Under the pieces are notes generated by a model that saw only the letters and a program-made list of their open reading frames with translations, did no database searches and had not been told where the DNA came from. Shown here one piece after another: positions 41,887-55,259 of a stretch of 55,259 nt of DNA. How positions within the stretch are numbered: position 1 is the stretch's first letter; every line of letters starts with the position of its first letter. Location: the IMG/VR virus record IMGVR_UViG_3300023184_005048, positions 1-55,259 of that record, one strand, 5' to 3'. The DNA comes from a virus (lineage: Duplodnaviria; Caudoviricetes). Made by a program: the position numbers and the translations under genes.

Positions 41887-42270
41887 ATGGAAAAAAAGAA
41901 AAGACCTGATAGTTTTGTAGAAAATCGAATGAGTAAGACTTATCCAACGGAAATTGGCGCACCAAAATTTGAGCCAGATAATATTAGTCTATTTAAAATT
42001 GAAAAAACTTCTAAGATAAAAAAATACTATTCGTCAAAATTTGAAGAAATGACGAAAGAGTATGAAAAGCTAATGTCAGAAATTAAAATGAATGAAAGAC
42101 TTTATATGGCTACGCATAACTTTACACCAATCTCTGGTGAAATTTATCACTTATATAAAAAGGAATCCAATGAAGAATTCCTTTCTTTAATATCTCCGGA
42201 ACAATGGAAAAAATTTGAGTTTATCGGCTCTTTCAAATTTTTATCTGATGGAAGATGGGAGGTAGCTTAA
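41887..42270 (+). CDS. DUF2452-like protein
   Basis: F.P..GEIYHLY...FLSLISPEQW...GSF....DGRW. Confidence 0.6.
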   Translation: MEKKKRPDSFVENRMSKTYPTEIGAPKFEPDNISLFKIEKTSKIKKYYSSKFEEMTKEYEKLMSEIKMNERLYMATHNFTPISGEIYHLYKKESNEEFLSLISPEQWKKFEFIGSFKFLSDGRWEVA

Positions 42271-43871
42271 CCTACCCACCCTTCTTTCAAACTTACCGTT
42301 TTATTGAAACTTTTACCATCAGTATCTAAAATATAATACCCTTTTCTCATCATTTGAACTGGCTCCTTGACGTTTAAAACGTGAGGCTCAAAGATTGCCT
42401 TATCATTAATTATAAGTGAACCTGGGTTAATATAATTGATAAAATCATCTTCATTTTTATCTGGTGATTCATCATTAAATAATCTTTCATATTCATTTAC
42501 TCTAACTCTAACTCCGTGTTCAGCAGATACCCAGTGAATAGTTCCTTTAATTTTTCTTTCAAAAGTCATACCCGATCTTGTTAAAGGATCATAAGTACAC
42601 CTAATCTCAATAATTTCTCCTAATTCATTCTTTATAACTTCATTAGCCTTAATAACATAAGCACCTTTTAATCTTACTTCACCACCTAATTTTAATCTGT
42701 GGAATTTGTTATTGGCTTCTTCTCTGAAATCTTCCGCCTCAATAAATAATTCACCACTAAAAGGAATCATTCTCACTCCAGCACTTTCATCACCAGGATT
42801 GTTTTCAACCTCAACCATTTCAGTTCCCATATCCCAATTTGTAATAACTAACTTAACTGGCTCCATGACTCCCATTAATCTATTAGCAACTACATTCAAA
42901 TCAGTTCTTAAACATTCTTCTAAAAGTAAGTAAGAAACAACAGACTCTTTTCTAGTAACAGAAATTCTATCACAAAAATCTTTAATAGCATTTGGTGTAA
43001 AACCTCTTCTTCTTAATCCAGAAATAGTTGGCATTCTTGGATCATCCCAACCCGTAACATAAGATTCTTCTACAAGTCTTTTTAACTTTCTCTTTGACAT
43101 AACTGTATAGTCAATGTTCAAACGAGCAAACTCAGTTTCTTCTGGTAATGAATTTTCTAAATCACAATTTTCTAACACCCACATATATAAAGGTCTATGA
43201 ACTTCAAATTCTAAAGTACAAAGTGAATCAGTGATACCTTCTTTATAATCAGATAAAGGATGAGCAAAGTCATACATTGGATAAATCTTCCAAGTATCAC
43301 CAGTTCTGTGATGTGACTTAGAGATTATTCTATAAATAACTGGATCTCTTAAAATCATATTTGGTGAAGTCATATCAATATTAGCTCTCAATATTTTAGA
43401 ACCTTCAGAGAATTCACCTAATCTCATTCTATTAAATAAGTCTAAGTTTTCTTCTACTGATCTAGACTTGTAAGGTGAGTCTTTACCAACTGAAGTTGGA
43501 GTTCCTTTCATTAAAGCAATTTCTTCAGATGTTGAATCATCAACATAAGCTAAGCCTTTTTTAATTAAAGTAACGGCACAATTATAAAGAAATTCAAAGT
43601 AATCAGATGTATAGAAAATATTAGCTGGTTTGTAGCCAAGCCATTCTATATCTTTTATAATTGACTCTACATAGTGAGTATCTTCAGTAGTTGGATTTGT
43701 ATCATCAAATCTTAGATTACAAGGTCTATTATACTTTTCAGCTAATCCGAAATTTAGTATAATGGATTTAGCGTGACCAATATGGAGATAACCATTTGGC
43801 TCTGGTGGAAATCTTAATGTTAGTTTATCAAGATTGTTTTTGTCTAATATTTTATCTTCAATGAAATTCAT
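42267..43871 (-). CDS. glnS: Glutaminyl-tRNA synthetase
   Basis: RFPPEPNGYLHIGHAK, LRFDDTNP, IYPMYDFAH, CTLEF, MSKRKL, KGTIHWVS. Confidence 0.95.
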   Translation of the reverse strand: MNFIEDKILDKNNLDKLTLRFPPEPNGYLHIGHAKSIILNFGLAEKYNRPCNLRFDDTNPTTEDTHYVESIIKDIEWLGYKPANIFYTSDYFEFLYNCAVTLIKKGLAYVDDSTSEEIALMKGTPTSVGKDSPYKSRSVEENLDLFNRMRLGEFSEGSKILRANIDMTSPNMILRDPVIYRIISKSHHRTGDTWKIYPMYDFAHPLSDYKEGITDSLCTLEFEVHRPLYMWVLENCDLENSLPEETEFARLNIDYTVMSKRKLKRLVEESYVTGWDDPRMPTISGLRRRGFTPNAIKDFCDRISVTRKESVVSYLLLEECLRTDLNVVANRLMGVMEPVKLVITNWDMGTEMVEVENNPGDESAGVRMIPFSGELFIEAEDFREEANNKFHRLKLGGEVRLKGAYVIKANEVIKNELGEIIEIRCTYDPLTRSGMTFERKIKGTIHWVSAEHGVRVRVNEYERLFNDESPDKNEDDFINYINPGSLIINDKAIFEPHVLNVKEPVQMMRKGYYILDTDGKSFNKTVSLKEGWVG

Positions 43872-43889
43872 AATTTTTATATTTTTTAG

Positions 43890-43960
43890 TTGTCTCGCTA
43901 GGATTCGAACCTAGACTAGAAGAGTCAAAATCTTCTGTGCTGCCGTTACACTACGAGACA
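43890..43960 (-). tRNA. tRNA-Gln(UUG)
   Basis: Cloverleaf; GAAGA-TTTTGAC-TCTTC. Confidence 0.9.
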
Positions 43961-43966
43961 TTTTTG

Positions 43967-44038
43967 TTGCTCCACTTGGACTCGAACCAAGCTCATCTGT
44001 TTCAAAGACAGATATGATCACCCATATACTATGGAGCA
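43967..44038 (-). tRNA. tRNA-Gln(UUG)
   Basis: Cloverleaf; TCTGT-CTTTGAA-ACAGA. Confidence 0.88.
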
Positions 44039-44046
44039 AAATGTTG

Positions 44047-44117
44047 TTGTCTTACTAGGACTCGAACCTAGAATAGAAGAGTCAAAATCTTCTGTGTTGC
44101 CATTACACTATAAGACA
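44047..44117 (-). tRNA. tRNA-Gln(UUG)
   Basis: Cloverleaf; GAAGA-TTTTGAC-TCTTC. Confidence 0.9.
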
Positions 44118-44119
44118 AT

Positions 44120-44154
44120 AAAAAAACCCTACTCAATCAGATTGAATAGGGTTT
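44120..44154 (-). terminator. Attenuator terminator before the tRNA-Gln x3/glnS unit
   Basis: AACCCTATTCAAT-ctg-ATTGAGTAGGGTT hairpin plus T-run. Confidence 0.85.
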
Positions 44155-44182: not shown

Positions 44183-44236
44183 TCAATCTGTTCGATTAAT
44201 TTGTTGTTGTTGTTGGTATTGTGATGTTGTTGTCAT
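44183..44236 (-). CDS. Gln-rich leader peptide MTTTSQYQQQQQINRTD
   Basis: Hand-translated; six CAA codons; its 3' end CAGATTGA is complementary to the terminator 5' arm and loop. Confidence 0.85.
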   Translation of the reverse strand: MTTTSQYQQQQQINRTD

Positions 44237-44266
44237 AATTCTATTTATTAATATTTTGTTTCTTTG

Positions 44267-44343
44267 TCGAGATGGCAGGATTCGAACCTGCGAGTTCTCC
44301 TGCTCCCAAAGCAGGCGGGGTAACCGGACTCCCCAACATCTCG
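44267..44343 (-). tRNA. tRNA-Pro(UGG)
   Basis: CCTGC-TTTGGGA-GCAGG; C1-G72, A73. Confidence 0.9.
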
Positions 44344-44351
44344 TATTTTAG

Positions 44352-44425
44352 CGGTCCCGACGGGATTCGAACCCGCACCTCGCACCGTGACAGGGTGGTA
44401 TTGTAAACCATTCAACCACGGGACC
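44352..44425 (-). tRNA. tRNA-Asp(GUC)
   Basis: Loop CTGTCAC; G73. Confidence 0.9.
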
Positions 44426-44489
44426 GTTTTTGAGAATTCTTTTACTCTATTCTCTAAAGAGTATCTTTTGCCTCAAAGGCTACTTGTTG

Positions 44490-44561
44490 CGGTCTAGAAG
44501 GGTTTCGATCCCTCTACTTCTGCGTGACAGGCAGATATGATAGCCACTTCACCACTAGACC
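44490..44561 (-). tRNA. tRNA-Asp(GUC)
   Basis: TCTGC-CTGTCAC-GCAGA; T-loop ATCGAAA. Confidence 0.85.
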
Positions 44562-44568
44562 ATTTTTG

Positions 44569-44641
44569 TCGGGAAGGTCGGAATCGAACCGACTAACTGA
44601 AGCCTCCAGAGCCCCCGTGCTTAAACCTTAGTCACTTCCCG
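44569..44641 (-). tRNA. Atypical tRNA-Pro(UGG)
   Basis: CGGGAAG/CTTCCCG acceptor; loop TCTGGAG (C33, A37); weak D-arm. Confidence 0.65.
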
Positions 44642-44656
44642 TTTTTTATATAAAAC

Positions 44657-44689
44657 AAAAAACCCAGTTAATCTTTCGACTAACTGGGT
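44657..44689 (-). terminator. Attenuator terminator before the Pro/Asp/Gln tRNA array
   Basis: ACCCAGTTAGTC-GAAA-GATTAACTGGGT hairpin plus T-run. Confidence 0.85.
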
Positions 44690-44712: not shown

Positions 44713-44811
44713 TTAACCTAAAACTACATAGTTAGCCTCTTTCGAACCAGGATCCTGATCGATTACAACTTGCGGTTGCGGGTTAACGATATTTAAGTTT
44801 AAGTTTTTCAT
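44713..44811 (-). CDS. Leader peptide MKNLNLNIVNPQPQVVIDQDPGSKEANYVVLG
   Basis: Hand-translated; Pro/Gln/Asp cluster followed by GGCTAACT, complementary to the terminator 5' arm. Confidence 0.75.
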   Translation of the reverse strand: MKNLNLNIVNPQPQVVIDQDPGSKEANYVVLG

Positions 44812-44816
44812 TTCAG

Positions 44817-44889
44817 TATATATTAAAAAGGATTTCTTCCTTTTGTTCTTATTTTATACAAATATACAACAAAGTTTTAATTTGTCAAA
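44817..44889 (-). promoter_or_regulatory. Tandem promoters: AATATATA (44817-44824) and Bacteroidota-type TATATTTG/TTTG (44859-44889)
   Basis: Both recurring motifs lie directly upstream of the leader ORF. Confidence 0.6.
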
Positions 44890-44901
44890 TATTTTTTATT
44901 T

Positions 44902-50531: not shown

Positions 50532-50566
50532 AAAAAAGCCTCTGATTTTTCAGAGGCTTTCTTTTT
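50532..50566. terminator. Bidirectional terminator between convergent genes
   Basis: AAAAAAGCCTCTGA-tttt-TCAGAGGCTTT. Confidence 0.8.
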
Positions 50567-52190
50567 ATAAAGTATTTTGAATTCTTATTAATGACTCATC
50601 CCTACCAAGGATTTCCATTGTTGATACCAAGTCTGGACCCGGCATACCACCTGTGATAGCAACTCTTAAAGCTGGCATTATCTTACCCATCTTAACACCC
50701 ATTTCTTGACAAAGATCGTGAATATTTTGTTTAATAGTCTCAGCATTCCAATCAATTGACTTTGTTATAAAAGCACTAAATACTTTCTTATAATCATCAG
50801 TCAATAACTTAACATCTGTTTCTTTAATCACAATTGGCTTAAAGAAGATATCAGCAACCACTTGTAAATCTTTTGTGAAGACCGCTCTCTTTTTACAGAT
50901 ATCCACAATCTTAGAAAGATTTTCTGGTGAATATTGATATTGGTCACCCATATCAATATTAGAAAGAAGTTCATCATCACTTCTATAAGTGTTCAAATGT
51001 TGAGCATTAAAGTGTTTAGCTTTTTCAACATCAAAACGAGCACCGGCTTTATGAACGTGAGATAAATCAAACTTAGAAATCATATCAGCCATTGTCATTA
51101 CTTCAGTAGTATCAGTTGGAGACCAACCTAATAGTACTAAGAAGTTTAACATAGCTTGTGGTTCATAACCTTCATCTTTGAAACCAAGATATTTAACCAT
51201 ATTACCTTTATCATCTTCTCCTTCACCACCCATCGGGAAAGCAGGAATACCCATAGAAAGAGCTTTACGTTTAGACAACTTGCCTTTACCATCTGGATTT
51301 AAAATCAATGGTAAATGAGCAAAAGTAGGAGCAGTCCAACCAAATGCTTCATATAACATTAAATGAAGCGGAGTTGAAGGTAGCCATTCTTCACCACGAA
51401 TAACGTGAGTTGTTCCCATATCATGGTCGTCACAAACATTAGCCATATGATATGTTGGAATACCATTTGATTTAACTAAAACTTTATCATCAGTTTGATT
51501 TGTATTCAAACTAACTTCACCACGAATAACATCAGTAACAGTAATTGTTCTGTTTTCTGGTGTTTTGAAACGAATTACAAATGGAGTTTTATTAGCAAGT
51601 AAAGCATCAACTTCTTCTTTTGGTAAAGAAAGTGAATTTCTCATTGACATACGAGTTTTAGCATCGTAAGCAAAGTGAGCATTTTCAGCTCTAACTTTAG
51701 CAATATCTTCTTCAGTATCAAAAGCATAATAAGCCATACCCTTATCTAAAAGAGTTTGAATATGTTCAGAGTAATCTCTTTCCGATTGACGGTAAGGACC
51801 ATTAGGACCACCTTTCCAAGGCGCATAGTCTGGTTCAATACCACACCACTCTAAAGAATCTTGGATATACTTTTCAGCATCACCAACAAATCTTTTTTGG
51901 TCAGTATCTTCAATACGAACATAAAATATACCACCGTGTTTTTTAGCAAACAGATAGTTATAAAGGGCAGTACGAACTCCACCGATGTGTAGAAATCCTG
52001 TTGGTGAAGGAGCAAAACGAGTTACTACTTTACCGGAAGGTGTAATAGTATCTAAAGCATCCAAACTTTTTTGAACATCAGGGGATTGTCCATCATCATG
52101 AGTCGCAAGTGTATGAAGAGCATCGTCACTCATTTCACTTTTTGATTCAGCGAGAAATTTATCTCTATTTTTAATGTATTTCATGTCCAT
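50565..52190 (-). CDS. gltX: Glutamyl-tRNA synthetase with a ~50 aa N-terminal extension (likely start 52184)
   Basis: RFAPSPTGFLHIGG, RIEDTD, YRQSER, HVIRGEEW, KLSKR. Confidence 0.95.
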   Translation of the reverse strand: MDMKYIKNRDKFLAESKSEMSDDALHTLATHDDGQSPDVQKSLDALDTITPSGKVVTRFAPSPTGFLHIGGVRTALYNYLFAKKHGGIFYVRIEDTDQKRFVGDAEKYIQDSLEWCGIEPDYAPWKGGPNGPYRQSERDYSEHIQTLLDKGMAYYAFDTEEDIAKVRAENAHFAYDAKTRMSMRNSLSLPKEEVDALLANKTPFVIRFKTPENRTITVTDVIRGEVSLNTNQTDDKVLVKSNGIPTYHMANVCDDHDMGTTHVIRGEEWLPSTPLHLMLYEAFGWTAPTFAHLPLILNPDGKGKLSKRKALSMGIPAFPMGGEGEDDKGNMVKYLGFKDEGYEPQAMLNFLVLLGWSPTDTTEVMTMADMISKFDLSHVHKAGARFDVEKAKHFNAQHLNTYRSDDELLSNIDMGDQYQYSPENLSKIVDICKKRAVFTKDLQVVADIFFKPIVIKETDVKLLTDDYKKVFSAFITKSIDWNAETIKQNIHDLCQEMGVKMGKIMPALRVAITGGMPGPDLVSTMEILGRDESLIRIQNTL

Positions 52191-52217
52191 ATATATTATT
52201 TTTTAATCTAAAAATTA

Positions 52218-52355
52218 TTAATCTTCAATTAAGAATCCAATTATTATATACCAAAGTAAAGCCCATCCACTATGAAAGAACCAGATTACAAAAAATAATC
52301 TAAACCAAAAACGGTCAATACCGGTTTTATTTTGTAGCCGTGTACAAGTACTCAT
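52218..52355 (-). CDS. Small PspC-like membrane protein
   Basis: Hand-translated MSTCTRLQNKTGIDRFWFRLFFVIWFFHSGWALLWYIIIGFLIED; TAAATTTG promoter motif at 52378-52385. Confidence 0.55.
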   Translation of the reverse strand: MSTCTRLQNKTGIDRFWFRLFFVIWFFHSGWALLWYIIIGFLIED

Positions 52356-52419
52356 ATATTTATATTAAATTAGATTACAAATTTAGTAAAAAGAATTCTA
52401 ATAAACAAATATATACATT

Positions 52420-52998
52420 ATGAAATACTTAAAAAGATTTAACGAAGATATTGAAGCCACTATTAAACCAAATGGTAATATTAGTGCTAATATAGATGTT
52501 AAAACTGACGATGATAATACTATCTATGATAAAAGATGGGAAAATGAACTATCTGAGTTTATTACGATAAACTATCATGGTAAATTATATAAATTCAAAA
52601 AAGATAATATAATGTTACATTCTGATATGGTTCAGATAACTTATGCCTCTACACCACTTAATAGTGATGAACAAGGTGAAATTTGGGGCACGCCAGATAC
52701 TTTAGAATTTGATATTTATTTTGTTAAAGATAATGAAACAGATAAAGTAAGATTAACAGTTGATATTACTTATGGTGATTTAATGGCTTGTGAATTTACA
52801 GCTGAAGCTCCTAATAAAATAAAAGTGGTAGAATATACATCCTACCACTCTAAATTTGATCCAAGCAATACTGTATTTGCCTTAGTAGATGAATCTCTAC
52901 AATCCTTCATAAACTTCCTAAATAGATTTGAAGGAATGAAACTTAAAAAAGAAGATTTTAAGTTTTTGGATCAATATGACAATTACTTGCCAAATTAA
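52420..52998 (+). CDS. Hypothetical protein with MKYLKRFNE tag
   Basis: ORF; AATATATA at 52408-52415. Confidence 0.7.
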   Translation: MKYLKRFNEDIEATIKPNGNISANIDVKTDDDNTIYDKRWENELSEFITINYHGKLYKFKKDNIMLHSDMVQITYASTPLNSDEQGEIWGTPDTLEFDIYFVKDNETDKVRLTVDITYGDLMACEFTAEAPNKIKVVEYTSYHSKFDPSNTVFALVDESLQSFINFLNRFEGMKLKKEDFKFLDQYDNYLPN

Positions 52999-53207
52999 GA
53001 TATCCATCTGATTAAATACTTTGAATCCATTAAGTATTCAAAATCAGCATCTCCCATATCTGAAACAGGAACCTCAAATTTAATTTCAACCGGTTCACCT
53101 TCAGATTCGATAATTGCTAAGTAATAAGATACACCTTTTCTGATAAACTTAAACTCGGCTTTTGGATTTTGCTTATACAAAGCTTTTTTAATTTCATTCT
53201 TTTCCAT
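52995..53207 (-). CDS. Hypothetical protein
   Basis: ORF; KKALYKQNP, F.VPVSDMGDADF...K.LIRW. Confidence 0.65.
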   Translation of the reverse strand: MEKNEIKKALYKQNPKAEFKFIRKGVSYYLAIIESEGEPVEIKFEVPVSDMGDADFEYLMDSKYLIRWIS

Positions 53208-53229
53208 TTTTATTGGTTTTTTTATCGAG

Positions 53230-53310
53230 TATCAGAAGAGAGACTTGAACTCTCATACCGTTAGGCGCTGGCTTTTGAAACCAGTGTGTATACCATTCCA
53301 CCATTCTGAC
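53230..53310 (-). tRNA. tRNA-Leu(CAA)
   Basis: CTGGT-TTCAAAA-GCCAG; V-arm; A73. Confidence 0.88.
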
Positions 53311-53315
53311 ATTTG

Positions 53316-53386
53316 TAGCGTGTGTGGGGTTCGAACCCACTTATCAGTCCTTATGAGAGACAGCTCTTTTCCACTAAGCCACGCCA
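53316..53386 (-). tRNA. tRNA(CAU), Met or Ile2, with atypical D-arm
   Basis: Loop CTCATAA; T-arm GTGGG-TTCGAAC-CCCAC. Confidence 0.7.
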
Positions 53387-53395
53387 TATTATTAG

Positions 53396-53478
53396 TGCCC
53401 AAAGAGAGACTCGAACTCTCACGTCCTTTCGGACACCGGCTTCTTAGACCGGCGTGTCTACCATTCCACCATCTGGGC
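53396..53478 (-). tRNA. tRNA-Leu(AAG)
   Basis: CCGGT-CTAAGAA-GCCGG; Leu-type D-loop and V-arm. Confidence 0.88.
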
Positions 53479-53483
53479 ATTTG

Positions 53484-53556
53484 AGCAGATACCCAGAGTC
53501 GAACTGGAATCTCGTCCGTACCAAGGACGTGTAATCACCGATTATACGATAACTGC
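53484..53556 (-). tRNA. tRNA-Thr(GGU)
   Basis: CGTCC-TTGGTAC-GGACG. Confidence 0.85.
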
Positions 53557-53562
53557 TTGTTG

Positions 53563-53649
53563 TAGCGGGGGCAGGATTCGAACCTGACGTGTCACTTGCG
53601 CAACCCTGGGTTATGAGCCCAGTGAGTTTGACCTCTACTCTACCCCGCG
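53563..53649 (-). tRNA. Initiator-type tRNA-fMet(CAU) with a long variable arm
   Basis: C1:U72 mismatch, GGG/CCC anticodon stem, loop CTCATAA, extra V-arm. Confidence 0.8.
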
Positions 53650-53654
53650 ATATG

Positions 53655-53739
53655 TACCTGGAGCGGGACTCGAACCCGCACGGGCATTTCTGCCCACTGG
53701 ATTTTAAGTCCAGCGTGTCTACCATTCCACCACCCAGGC
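53655..53739 (-). tRNA. tRNA-Leu(UAA)
   Basis: CTGGA-CTTAAAA-TCCAG. Confidence 0.92.
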
Positions 53740-53755
53740 AGGTGATTTTATTTTG

Positions 53756-53839
53756 AGCCGATGGAGGGACTCGAACCCCCGTTGGACTATTCGTCTCTGG
53801 TTTACAAAACCAGTGCTGTCGCCACTGAGCCACATCGGC
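53756..53839 (-). tRNA. tRNA-Thr(UGU) with a long variable arm
   Basis: CTGGT-TTTGTAA-ACCAG; V-arm GAC-GAATA-GTC. Confidence 0.82.
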
Positions 53840-53842
53840 ATA

Positions 53843-53959
53843 TAATGGAGGAAAGTCTAAAGAGTGATTTTACTGAAGGACTTGAACCTTCAAAAGTTTG
53901 TTTTTAAGACAAATGTGTATACCATTTCACGAAGTAACACTCTTAATCACCATCCATTA
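53843..53959 (-). ncRNA. tRNA-like RNA (UAA loop) with a greatly extended acceptor helix
   Basis: D-, anticodon- and T-arms enclosed by TTACT/AGTAA, AAGAGTG/CACTCTT and TAATGGA/TCCATTA. Confidence 0.6.
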
Positions 53960-53964
53960 TTTTG

Positions 53965-54036
53965 TTGCCTTGGTGGGTAACGATCCCACTACCTCTTCCA
54001 TGTCAAGGAAGTGCTCTCCCATTGAGCTACAAGGCA
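53965..54036 (-). tRNA. tRNA-Val(GAC)
   Basis: CTTCC-TTGACAT-GGAAG. Confidence 0.88.
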
Positions 54037-54043
54037 ATTTTTG

Positions 54044-54190
54044 ACAGTAGGGTGGGAATCGAACCCACCTTCCCAATCCGAACTAAATGACATTTTCTAG
54101 AATATCAAATAATCAAGTTTGGTTTTTAACCCGGACCAGTTCTTTATGTGGCTTCTCTAGGAGTTACCACCTAATATAGGGTCCTACTGA
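54044..54190 (-). ncRNA. tRNA-like RNA: acceptor stem plus T-arm around a ~110 nt insert
   Basis: CAGTAG/CTACTG termini; GGTGGG-TTCGATT-CCCACC. Confidence 0.6.
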
Positions 54191-54194
54191 TTTG

Positions 54195-54266
54195 AGCTTC
54201 TTACCGGTAACGATCCGATTTCTCTAGTTTACAAGACTAGCGCATCACCATTAATGCTTAAGAAGC
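54195..54266 (-). tRNA. tRNA-Thr(UGU)
   Basis: CTAGT-CTTGTAA-ACTAG. Confidence 0.85.
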
Positions 54267-54271
54267 GTTTG

Positions 54272-54354
54272 AGGTACTGACTGGGTTCGAACCAGTGTGA
54301 CAGATTTTGCAGATCTGTGCCTCTCGTCTTTCGACACCACTCGGCCACAGTACC
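54272..54354 (-). tRNA. tRNA-Cys(GCA) with a hairpin inserted in the D-loop
   Basis: CAGAT-CTGCAAA-ATCTG; U73; GTC-GAAA-GAC insert. Confidence 0.85.
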
Positions 54355-54359
54355 ATTTG

Positions 54360-54433
54360 TTGGAATAGTAGGACTCGAACCTACAACCTTTCGCGTATCA
54401 GGCGAATGCTCTAACCAGTTGAGCTATATTCCA
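54360..54433 (-). tRNA. tRNA-Ile(GAU)
   Basis: TTCGC-CTGATAC-GCGAA. Confidence 0.92.
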
Positions 54434-54439
54434 ATTTTG

Positions 54440-54512
54440 TAGTCCCGGTCGGTTACGATCCGACTCCCTCCACTATGTAACAGTGGCGCTCCCCCGATTG
54501 AGCTACAGGACT
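54440..54512 (-). tRNA. tRNA-Val(UAC)
   Basis: CCACT-GTTACAT-AGTGG. Confidence 0.85.
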
Positions 54513-54517
54513 ATTTG

Positions 54518-54603
54518 CTGATGAGGTGGGACTCGAACCCACGGTGGACTTTAATGTCGTCTGGTTAACAGCCAGGCCCTTTCGCCGCTCAGGACACCCA
54601 TCA
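54518..54603 (-). tRNA. tRNA-Asn(GUU) with a long variable arm
   Basis: Loop CTGTTAA; V-arm GAC-ATTAAA-GTC; G73. Confidence 0.8.
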
Positions 54604-54609
54604 ATTTTG

Positions 54610-54692
54610 TACCGAAGGTGGGACTCGAACCCACACACCCTTTCGGGTACTAGCTCCTAAGGCTAGCGTGTCTACCATTCCACCACTTCGGC
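54610..54692 (-). tRNA. tRNA-Leu(UAG)
   Basis: CTAGC-CTTAGGA-GCTAG. Confidence 0.92.
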
Positions 54693-54695
54693 ATC

Positions 54696-54801
54696 TGAGT
54701 GTGATAGGGTATTCTCCTACAGTTGTGGTGGTTGACTAGTCCCATTGTCCACTCCAGTACTTCGTCTGGTGCTGTTTTAGTTTATCAGCGTTTACACACT
54801 C
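54696..54801 (-). ncRNA. Cloverleaf-like RNA with non-consensus loops
   Basis: 7-bp GAGTGTG/CACACTC, GCTG/CAGC, CCAG/CTGG, GTGG/CCAC and GTAGG-7nt-CCTAT stems, in tRNA order. Confidence 0.55.
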
Positions 54802-54805
54802 TTTG

Positions 54806-54878
54806 TAGTCTCCACGGGATTCGAACCCGTATTCTCAGTTTAGAAGACTGATGTCCTATCCAGTTGGACGAGGAAACT
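54806..54878 (-). tRNA. tRNA-Arg(UCU)
   Basis: TCAGT-CTTCTAA-ACTGA. Confidence 0.9.
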
Positions 54879-54883
54879 ATTTG

Positions 54884-54955
54884 CTCACTGGGGGAATTAC
54901 GATATCCCGACCTGACGCTTAACAGGCGCCTGCTCTACCTCTGAGCTACCAGTGA
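54884..54955 (-). tRNA. tRNA-Asn(GUU)
   Basis: GGCGC-CTGTTAA-GCGTC; G73. Confidence 0.85.
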
Positions 54956-54961
54956 ATGTTG

Positions 54962-55046
54962 TCGGTAGGGTGGGATTTGAACCCACGTTGTGATTTCTCA
55001 CCTAGTGTATCAGACTAGTCCCTGAAGACCGCTCGGGTACCTACCG
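54962..55046 (-). tRNA. tRNA-Ile(GAU) with a long variable arm
   Basis: CTAGT-CTGATAC-ACTAG; V-arm GTGA-GAAA-TCAC. Confidence 0.8.
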
Positions 55047-55061
55047 TTGTTTTAAGAGCAT

Positions 55062-55094
55062 AAAAAAACCCTCAGATTTTGTGTCTGAGGGTTT
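55062..55094 (-). terminator. Attenuator terminator before the large tRNA array
   Basis: AAACCCTCAGA-cacaaaa-TCTGAGGGTTT hairpin plus T-run. Confidence 0.85.
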
Positions 55095-55122
55095 CGAGTA
55101 TTCTTTATTAAAATTTGTTATA

Positions 55123-55233
55123 TTAACTAACAAATCGTTTAGATATGACGAAGCCCTCAGAGCGTCTAATACATAACGTATTATTCACCACTGTCAGTGT
55201 ATTCATGTTCATATTTAAATTCATTGTTTTCAT
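55123..55233 (-). CDS. Leader peptide MKTMNLNMNMNTLTVVNNTLCIRRSEGFVISKRFVS
   Basis: Hand-translated; contains TCTGAGGG, an exact copy of the terminator 3' arm; AATATATA 5 nt upstream (55239-55246). Confidence 0.8.
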   Translation of the reverse strand: MKTMNLNMNMNTLTVVNNTLCIRRSEGFVISKRFVS

Positions 55234-55259
55234 TGTTGTATATATTAAAAAGTTTTTGT

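Follow-up and report, generated by a model that had tools for sequence, protein, structure and literature searches.

Leader peptides that list the codons of downstream tRNA arrays: a candidate ribosome-mediated attenuator in a freshwater megaphage and its relatives

Enterobacteria control the trp, his, leu and pheA operons through transcription attenuators, and multivalent versions of this device are known from ilvGMEDA, whose leader carries Ile, Leu and Val codons, and from thr (Thr and Ile codons). An aminoacyl-tRNA synthetase (aaRS) operon, pheST of E. coli, is under leader-peptide attenuation as well, with pheM as the leader. The enterobacterial attenuators share several traits with the phage units described here: a short leader rich in cognate codons (which is translated in the enterobacterial case), mutually exclusive helices between RNA regions 1:2, 2:3 and 3:4, a terminator placed before the first gene, and leaders that address more than one amino acid. 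Our analysis concerns the complete linear IMG/VR virus record IMGVR_UViG_3300023184_005048 (Duplodnaviria; Caudoviricetes), whose 55,259 bases we refer to as the window, and in particular unit A near its end, in which a small open reading frame (ORF) and an intrinsic terminator precede a large tRNA array. We consider it quite probable that unit A is a four-region ribosome-mediated transcription attenuator, and that it is one of a genome-wide set standing over essentially all tRNA arrays and some aaRS genes.

All features of unit A, and of two further units of the window, B and C, lie on the minus strand. Leader ORF A (55123..55233; MKTMNLNMNMNTLTVVNNTLCIRRSEGFVISKRFVS) extends from an ATG at position 55233 to a TAA at 55123 and consists of 36 codons plus the stop, with codons 2-22 of MKTMNLNMNMNTLTVVNNTLCIRRSEGFVISKRFVS taken as the regulatory codons. 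The original prediction rested on the count that 23 of the first 24 codons specify Met, Thr, Asn, Leu, Val, Cys, Ile or Arg, with all eight families present. This count holds when the ATG is set aside: 22 of the 23 codons from 2 to 24 belong to these families, the exception being the Lys codon AAA. Judged against a background frequency of 0.411 derived from the 45 long ORFs of the window, such a composition has a binomial P of 4.5e-8, and not one of the 13,183 sliding 23-residue windows taken from the same ORFs reaches a score of 22. At the level of decoding, the anticodons of the downstream array can read 21 of the 23 codons (exceptions AAA and CGC; P=1.3e-7). Leader A is kept as an ORF in 8 records, and the indels found within the first 24 codons of six aligned A leaders are multiples of three.

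The array behind this leader (53229..55046) comprises 18 tRNAs and two further structured elements. Its tRNAs are arranged in the order Ile, Asn, Arg, Leu, Asn, Val, Ile, Cys, Thr, Val, Leu, Thr, Leu, Met, Thr, Leu, Met, Leu, which amounts to two Ile, two Asn, one Arg(UCU), five Leu, two Val, one Cys(GCA), three Thr and two Met tRNAs; the eight families are those listed at the outset, with the previous count of four Leu tRNAs corrected to five. Two members required care. The tRNA-Cys at 54271-54354 is matched by the Rfam tRNA model and is missed or miscalled by ARAGORN, so that its GCA anticodon was read by eye, and the second Met tRNA (53313-53388) is called by ARAGORN at a relaxed threshold only and, with 28.6 bits in Rfam, stays just under the cut-off of 29. 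The finding of the same leader in front of arrays with a different tRNA content had been named as the observation that would speak against the codon-listing idea; all eight families were present in each of the leader-A arrays examined (8/8).

Between the leader and the array lies an intrinsic terminator, formed by regions 3 and 4 (55062..55096; 5' arm 55094-55084, 3' arm 55076-55066). Its stem of 12 base pairs (55095..55065) is followed by a run of seven T residues (55068-55062), and the first tRNA starts at 55046, only 13-18 nt further on, a distance that leaves no room for a promoter. Across six homologs, 100% of the alignment cells of this terminator are paired, four pairs are changed on both sides, and 0/500 shuffles reach such a result. 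Region 2, the antiterminator strand (55149..55161; TCTGAGGGCTTCG), is situated inside the leader at codons 25-29. It had been pointed out that the terminator 3' arm recurs as TCTGAGGG at 55161-55154, which could capture CCCTCAGA at 55091-55084. We find these elements in place and the complementarity to be longer, with 12 of the 13 positions pairing between TCTGAGGGCTTCG (55161-55149) and CGAAACCCTCAGA (55096-55084). The corresponding duplex has a computed energy of -19.0 kcal/mol that was attained by 0/500 shuffles; in the six leader-A homologs the values range from -15.8 to -20.5 kcal/mol, with 0-1/500 shuffles reaching them. Compensatory changes of antiterminator and terminator are found in the relatives G002, LR756502 and G003, and in G003 a changed terminator stem, CCCAGATTC, is paired by a correspondingly changed antiterminator, GAATCTGGG.

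We modeled the consequences of leader translation by masking a ribosome footprint of 28 nt. With no ribosome placed on the RNA, the minimum free energy (MFE) structure combines a helix between region 1 (55188..55220; codons 5-16), acting as an anti-antiterminator, and region 2 with a small hairpin around the leader stop codon (55112..55136), located between regions 2 and 3, and with the terminator. The 1:2 duplex of the six homologs is predicted at -13 to -19 kcal/mol, values reached by 6-66/300 shuffles. With the ribosomal A-site at codons 4-15 or 20-21, the 12-bp antiterminator replaces the terminator in the model, and from codon 22 onward the terminator returns. The antiterminator is thus predicted to be free for stalls up to Cys21, Ile22 is borderline, and ribosomes stalled at Arg23 or Arg24 mask it, in agreement with the earlier caveat that the Arg codons abut the element. 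The effective sensors of unit A would consequently be its Met, Thr, Asn, Leu, Val and Cys codons, and at most six or seven families are predicted to be sensed well. A second concern had been the distance by which the stop codon lies beyond the switch; the 1:2 anti-antiterminator helix answers this worry. Taken together, these models suggest that unit A follows the classical 1:2 / 2:3 / 3:4 attenuator logic.

Two further units of this kind are present in the window. Unit B came to light through the similarity between the 5' end of leader A and 44789-44830. It has a promoter-like site at 44859..44890 (TTTGACA, a spacer N16 and TATATTTG), which we take to be of the Bacteroidota -33/-7 pattern. 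Leader ORF B (44713..44811; MKNLNLNIVNPQPQVVIDQDPGSKEANYVVLG) displays P, Q and D codons, written as CCG/CCT, CAA/CAG and GAT, and terminator B (44662..44689) separates it from array B (44266..44641), which holds a Pro(UGG)-like, two Asp and one Pro tRNA. The Pro(UGG)-like tRNA (44565-44641) is called at a relaxed threshold only. Matching Pro(UGG) and Asp(GUC) tRNAs follow leader B directly, and Gln genes follow later in the operon. These belong to unit C: leader ORF C (44183..44236; MTTTSQYQQQQQINRTD) has six CAA codons and is followed by terminator C (44124..44154), three tRNA-Gln(UUG) genes (43889..44117) and a gene for glutamine--tRNA ligase (GlnRS; 42267..43871; TIGR00440, 655 bits, cut-off 425.8), which begins 17 nt past the last tRNA-Gln with no intervening terminator. 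A candidate antiterminator in unit C, AGATTGA, contains the leader stop codon and can pair with TCAATCT of the 5' arm and loop of the terminator, a pairing that we read by eye. Leader C lacks a promoter of its own, so that units B and C appear to be tandem attenuators in one operon, and this shared operon would explain why Gln codons are also found in leader B. A scan of the whole window for combinations of leader and terminator ahead of tRNAs retrieved no units beyond A, B and C.

To place these units in a wider context, we assembled a set of 11 records. The window has a GC content of about 29% and a CheckV completeness estimate of 17%; its closest relatives are IMG/VR megaphage genomes of 385-519 kb and the GenBank genomes LR756502.1 (642 kb) and LR745206.1 (635 kb). 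Besides these two and the window, the set contains the near-complete 385-519 kb genomes (G001-G004) and four shorter contigs. The DNA sequencing runs in which the window is found are metagenomes of lakes, rivers and other freshwater habitats. In the paper on huge phage genomes of this size, those >634 kb are assigned to the Mahaphage clade, with Bacteroidetes as their predicted hosts. Bacteroidota are the probable hosts of the clade of freshwater megaphages considered here. Pattern scans of IMG/VR yielded five loci for leader A, one of them on a new contig, and three for the Gln leader, one of which had previously not been collected; these few matches indicate that the clade is small in that collection.

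A total of 40 leader-plus-terminator units occur across the 11 records, and every array class of the relatives possesses its own leader and terminator. Leaders of the M/N/L/T/V/C/I/R type precede the homologs of array A. The leader HKHFSKSNKWF stands before a His/Lys/Phe/Trp array, SKSSSSRSS before a Ser/Arg array, YYYEGE before a Tyr/Glu array, and GGGAGA, with ATA codons, before a Gly/Ala array that in G002 and G003 also includes Ile(UAU). QQQQQQQ is found ahead of four Gln tRNAs, with Gln runs generally preceding tRNA-Gln, and KKKKK ahead of five Lys tRNAs in the Lys-only array of G004. Leaders change along with the merging or splitting of arrays between genomes. In G003, one merged Glu/Tyr/Gly/Ile(UAU)/Ala array is led by IYIGYIAEGGYEAG. 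In G004, a Phe/Ser/Asn/His/Thr array stands behind TNTSHNHFNKSTFSNKS, and a 21-tRNA array is headed by a 46-codon leader with T, Y, W, P, V, M, G, A, I, C, D and R; Trp, Tyr, Pro, Asp, Ala and Gly have moved to this large array, and W, Y, P, D, A and G are present in its leader. Among distant leaders, composition is kept and residue order is not. The leader-led arrays of G001, G002 and G004 hold tRNAs for all 20 amino acids, and those of G003 for all except Cys by automatic calls, a Cys tRNA then having been found by eye in its array A. The codon-listing rule extends to synthetase genes in LR745206.1, where the leader MKTMTINNRNRLTDII (L047 5201-5251) and a terminator lie ahead of asnS and an ArgRS-like ORF (L051, 390300-392800). 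The asnS assignment exceeds the NCBIfam equivalog cut-off narrowly (NF003037; 414.1 bits versus 414), and the ArgRS-like ORF scores below its NCBIfam cut-off and runs off the retrieved stretch. Arrays of tRNA genes as regulated products fall outside the classical scope of attenuation, which covers amino acid biosynthesis and aaRS genes; in the window, only unit C adds a synthetase, GlnRS.

The correspondence between leaders and arrays was assessed by shuffling leaders against arrays within each genome and counting the permutations that scored at least as well as the true pairing, a procedure that controls for composition. As leader, we took the ORF whose stop is nearest to the terminator and which does not overlap a tRNA, and scored it in its entirety. 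In G002, this rule picked a wrong frame once (L029 1392-1460 instead of 1358-1438); the case was kept in the permutation test and left out of the 31-unit switch count given below. The true pairing was the best in three near-complete genomes (G001, 1/5040; G003, 1/720; G004, 1/120) and tied at the top in the fourth (G002, 2/5040 at the amino acid level and 1/5040 at the codon level, despite the wrong-frame pick); the three units of the window give 1/6. In 62.5 of 79 combinations of amino acid and genome, the leader richest in a given residue precedes the array with the cognate tRNA, compared with 14.8 expected by chance. The central idea of the original prediction, a leader whose codons list the downstream tRNAs and which is coupled to a switch, thereby gains two more units in the window, ten other records, permutation statistics and covariation.

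We then surveyed the switch itself. In 16 of the 32 units picked by rule, no more than 2/200 shuffles matched the complementarity between an upstream strand and the terminator 5' arm; in 21 of the 32, no more than 10/200 did. In a nascent-transcript model, in which the RNA is cut before the terminator 3' arm (a setting chosen after the result of equilibrium folding was in hand), the 5' arm remains sequestered for every ribosome position as far as the last array-matching codon and becomes free 0-2 codons later in 31/31 units, the geometry expected of attenuators. The anatomy of the units, the match statistics between codons and tRNAs, the conservation and co-variation of leaders with their arrays, and the covariation of antiterminators with terminators are all directly observed.

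These data lend themselves to the following regulatory model. Transcription would start about 40-60 nt ahead of the leader, at a promoter, and a ribosome would translate the leader, whose early codons are those read by the downstream tRNAs. When charged tRNAs are in ample supply, the ribosome would cross region 2, the terminator hairpin would form, and the polymerase would stop 13-18 nt before the first tRNA. When any listed codon is read slowly, the ribosome would stall on region 1, region 2 would pair with the terminator 5' arm, and the whole array would be transcribed. Since any one listed codon would suffice for a stall, the device would operate as an OR gate. Such a gate had been foreseen for unit A with eight inputs; the combination of leader and switch is supported, and the footprint model predicts that at most six or seven of these inputs are sensed well. 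The output would consist of the very tRNAs and synthetases whose shortage caused the stall, so that, during infection, the circuit would place the capacity to decode particular codons under negative feedback. We infer that the leader is translated, that ribosomes stall on it in vivo, and which physiological signal a stall reports. Given that tRNAs and aaRS are what the units produce, a sensor of cognate aminoacyl-tRNA supply is more plausible than one of the amino acids themselves.

Several observations weigh against this interpretation. Within unit A, Ile22, Arg23 and Arg24 lie outside the permissive zone of the footprint model and are too near to region 2 to be sensed, and the CGC codon cannot be read by any tRNA of array A. 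An N-terminus rich in N, T, I, L and K is common to all leaders irrespective of the array that follows, so that part of the match to array A reflects shared ancestry or composition. When the leader-A antiterminators are aligned by MAFFT, 80.6% of the cells are paired, 23-45/500 shuffles score as high, and one distant row is misaligned. The antiterminator duplex of unit C is weak on its own (27/200 shuffles reach it), RNAalifold returned no consensus for eight Gln leaders, whose alignment is poor, and in 11/32 units, including the Gln leader of the window and Glu/Tyr leaders, shuffled sequences do as well as the best antiterminator duplex. Equilibrium folding with the full terminator gives a terminator probability >0.8 at all ribosome positions in 22/32 units, so that a kinetic, co-transcriptional choice would be needed there. 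The gene for glutamate--tRNA ligase in the window (GluRS; 50565-52190, minus strand; TIGR00464, 440 bits) is preceded at 52191-52420 (minus strand) by a 45-codon hydrophobic ORF only; a leader with Glu codons was looked for there and not found. The units are homologous across genomes, and neither P values nor genomes can be treated as independent; it is the re-assortment of arrays between genomes that supplies independent information. The available RNA data are assembled metatranscriptome contigs, in which transcript ends, strand and level are not visible. Finally, coupling of transcription and translation is an assumption for the presumed Bacteroidota host.

The alternative that survives best leaves the attenuator itself untouched and changes its signal: as in the original prediction, the phage would respond to amino acid starvation of the host and make more tRNA whenever amino acids become scarce. 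What classical leader attenuators sense is the charging level of tRNA, which drops upon starvation, and the anatomy of unit A cannot separate the two signals. Yet, extra tRNA does not relieve a shortage of amino acids, and the products found here (tRNAs, GlnRS, and AsnRS/ArgRS-like proteins) raise the amount of charged tRNA only if tRNA or synthetase is limiting. In addition, none of the 40 units precedes an amino acid biosynthesis gene. We therefore regard starvation as an unlikely signal, to be entertained nonetheless more seriously than any of the explanations that follow.

If the small ORFs had arisen by chance, or if their peptides served some other purpose, the hairpins would simply terminate or insulate neighbouring transcription units, with the arrays expressed from undetected promoters or through constitutive read-through. 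Short ORFs are indeed common in such an AT-rich genome, ordinary genes of the window are also closed by terminator-like hairpins, and for 12 of 34 leaders no TAnnTTTG motif is recognizable within 110 nt. This explanation is very improbable in view of the pairing statistics, with the true assignment best in three genomes and in the top two of a fourth, of leaders that conserve their composition and not their order and follow the merging and splitting of arrays, of the gap of only 13-18 nt between terminator and tRNA, and of the 13,183 control windows, none of which matches the composition of leader A.

A ribosome-free mechanism resembling T-box riboswitches, in which anticodons of uncharged tRNAs would pair with the codon runs of the leader and thereby stabilize the antiterminator, also predicts a correspondence of codons and anticodons. 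However, no T-box (RF00230) or other riboswitch was detected when the whole window was searched at the Rfam gathering score, or 53150-55259 at E<=1; the codon runs sit in a conserved frame from ATG to stop with indels in multiples of three (six leaders, first 24 codons); the modeled switch point fits the footprint of a ribosome; and up to 12 specificities in one leader would be implausible for a folded specifier. We give this mechanism hardly any credence. Equally hard to credit is the idea that leader translation governs how the polycistronic tRNA precursor is processed by RNases or how stable it is, or that the coding region mainly serves as a 5' handle for maturation, for although tRNA precursors need 5' processing and the antiterminator is not favored at equilibrium in 22/32 units, it leaves unexplained both the covarying complementarity between the strand within the ORF and the terminator 5' arm and the T-run terminators placed directly before the arrays.

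With regard to transcription initiation, scans for sigma-70 promoters revealed no enrichment (2 sites versus 4.0 expected; 94 versus 99.2 expected). A TAnnTTTG motif is present within 110 nt upstream of 22/34 leaders, and the other 12 have no recognizable motif; the promoters upstream of the leaders look like the TTTG/TAnnTTTG type that we take to be characteristic of Bacteroidota. The promoter of unit A itself would lie beyond the end of the window; in G001, G002, LR756502.1 and LR745206.1, the motif is located 54-66 nt upstream of leader A. A 424-nt contig from an RNA library (run X16) aligns with 54959-55211 with one mismatch and spans leader, terminator and first tRNA; carry-over of DNA is possible, and we do not count this contig as support, just as stretches that no contig covers carry no weight. 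Directly upstream of the leader ATGs, at a distance of 4-10 nt, there is a conserved motif similar to TTTTTAATATATA (55237-55250 and 44815-44828 in the window, minus strand, and most related leaders), at which no Shine-Dalgarno sequence was found. The first leader codons follow the pattern MK/T-T/N-x-N-L/I-N in different array classes. Motif and first codons may serve to initiate translation, belong to region 1 or reflect common descent.

The tRNAs of these phages show a number of structural peculiarities. Four tRNAs of array A with a length of 85-87 nt carry long variable arms like those of class II tRNAs, namely those with the anticodons GAU (Ile; 54961-55046), GUU (Asn; 54517-54603), UGU (Thr; 53755-53839) and CAU (Met; 53564-53648), all on the minus strand; each has a partner of normal length with the identical anticodon in the same array. 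In the relatives, long variable arms likewise occur on Lys, Glu, Gln, His and Trp tRNAs. The tRNA-Cys(GCA) contains a GNRA-capped hairpin inserted in its D-loop, a feature kept in all leader-A arrays (54271-54354 in the window, minus strand; L024 2763-2847, L030 1752-1835, L034 2264-2347, L046 2561-2644, L047 3481-3564 and L040 4304-4387), and ARAGORN either fails to find it or labels it as Leu, Ala, Val, Thr, Ser or Pro. A similar D-loop hairpin is found in the Gly(UCC) tRNAs of G002 and G003. A 74-nt tRNA at 53866-53939 (minus strand; 31% GC) has a Leu-type D-arm and a UAA anticodon and lacks the long variable arm; it adjoins a normal 86-nt Leu(UAA). In G002 and G003, there are tRNAs with a CUA anticodon, resembling amber suppressors and labeled 'Pyl' by ARAGORN, and G003 has one with UUA; several tRNAs of the relatives possess 8-nt anticodon loops. 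The tRNAs with CUA or UUA anticodons or with 8-nt loops are located at L032 933-1005 (G002), L033 1231-1303 and L036 1321-1392 (G003), and L024 3418-3490, L030 2451-2523 and L036 1399-1473. As stop codon, the three leader ORFs of the window use TAA or TGA.

The two structured elements of array A that are not regular tRNAs are both on the minus strand. The first is a 112-nt RNA (54693-54804) between Arg(UCU) and Leu(UAG), for which a closed multi-branch fold of -28.3 kcal/mol is predicted (z=-2.9; 0/200 shuffles as stable) and which has no match to an Rfam family. A related contig has a similar stretch at the same place. The second is a 150-nt tRNA-like element (54041-54190) with an acceptor stem, a T-arm and a large internal insertion; a contig from an RNA library passes directly from 54040 to 54194, so that the element may be optional between strains.

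What could such a system accomplish for a phage? One possibility, on which we are evenly divided, is a homeostat of decoding capacity, in which five to seven leaders cover the 20 amino acids, each gating its own tRNAs and in some cases synthetases, host tRNAs are replaced on demand, and the aberrant phage tRNAs evade the removal of host tRNAs. If so, the trigger could be AT-rich late genes outrunning the host tRNA pool, or a depletion of tRNAs brought about by host defences or by the phage itself, and the aberrant tRNAs (long arms on Ile, Asn, Thr and Met; D-loop hairpins in Cys and Gly) would be replacements that escape the removal directed at host tRNAs. More generally, the attenuator model would speak to the questions how phage tRNA genes are regulated and why giant phages carry near-complete tRNA sets. 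In practical terms, the tRNA content of an operon would become predictable from its leader peptide, which could serve as an annotation rule, and synthetic biology would gain compact multi-input sensors of tRNA supply.

In our full-text literature search, we found no description of leader attenuation acting on phage tRNA arrays, and the main text of the huge-phage paper in which two of the related genomes were published contains none of the terms 'attenuat', 'leader' and 'terminator', its supplementary tRNA tables lying outside the search. No Rfam leader family reached the gathering score in the window; the best leader scores, at 55060-55151, were those of His_leader (RF00514; 23.0 bits, cut-off 49) and Phe_leader (RF01859; 22.7 bits, cut-off 55). 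Among the systems known to monitor tRNA charging, T-box riboswitches also choose between terminator and antiterminator ahead of aaRS and related genes. They do so through direct binding of tRNA, independently of the ribosome, and with a conserved Stem I and T-box motif, whereas the codon reader of the phage units would be the ribosome. Runs of a single codon act as a sensor for operon expression in the polycysteine attenuators of mycobacteria, which are leaderless short ORFs; these differ from the phage units in that they serve cysteine metabolism, respond to one amino acid, involve no tRNA genes and operate in another host (bioRxiv 10.1101/834739).

Closer in purpose is pheST, the product of which raises the charged tRNA that is being sensed, as would the Gln leader with its three tRNA-Gln genes and GlnRS, and the NNRNR leader ahead of asnS and the ArgRS-like ORF in LR745206.1. 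In the phage units, however, tRNA genes are the first and usually the only products, and attenuators can follow each other in tandem, as unit B is followed by unit C. The closest architectural match is provided by the enterobacterial attenuators, from which the phage units differ in regulating tRNA arrays instead of biosynthetic enzymes, in leaders that list up to 8-12 codon families, and in being encoded by a phage whose five to seven leaders partition all 20 amino acids. New are the use of tRNA arrays as the target and of a phage as the carrier, how many specificities one leader combines, and the division of all 20 amino acids among the leaders of a genome. If our interpretation is correct, attenuation would be extended to tRNA genes, to phages, to as many as a dozen specificities per leader and to 20 amino acids per genome; tRNA arrays would then be regulated by demand through leader-peptide attenuation, the oldest known RNA switch, rewired to let the ribosome measure decoding capacity for the codons of the operon's own tRNAs.

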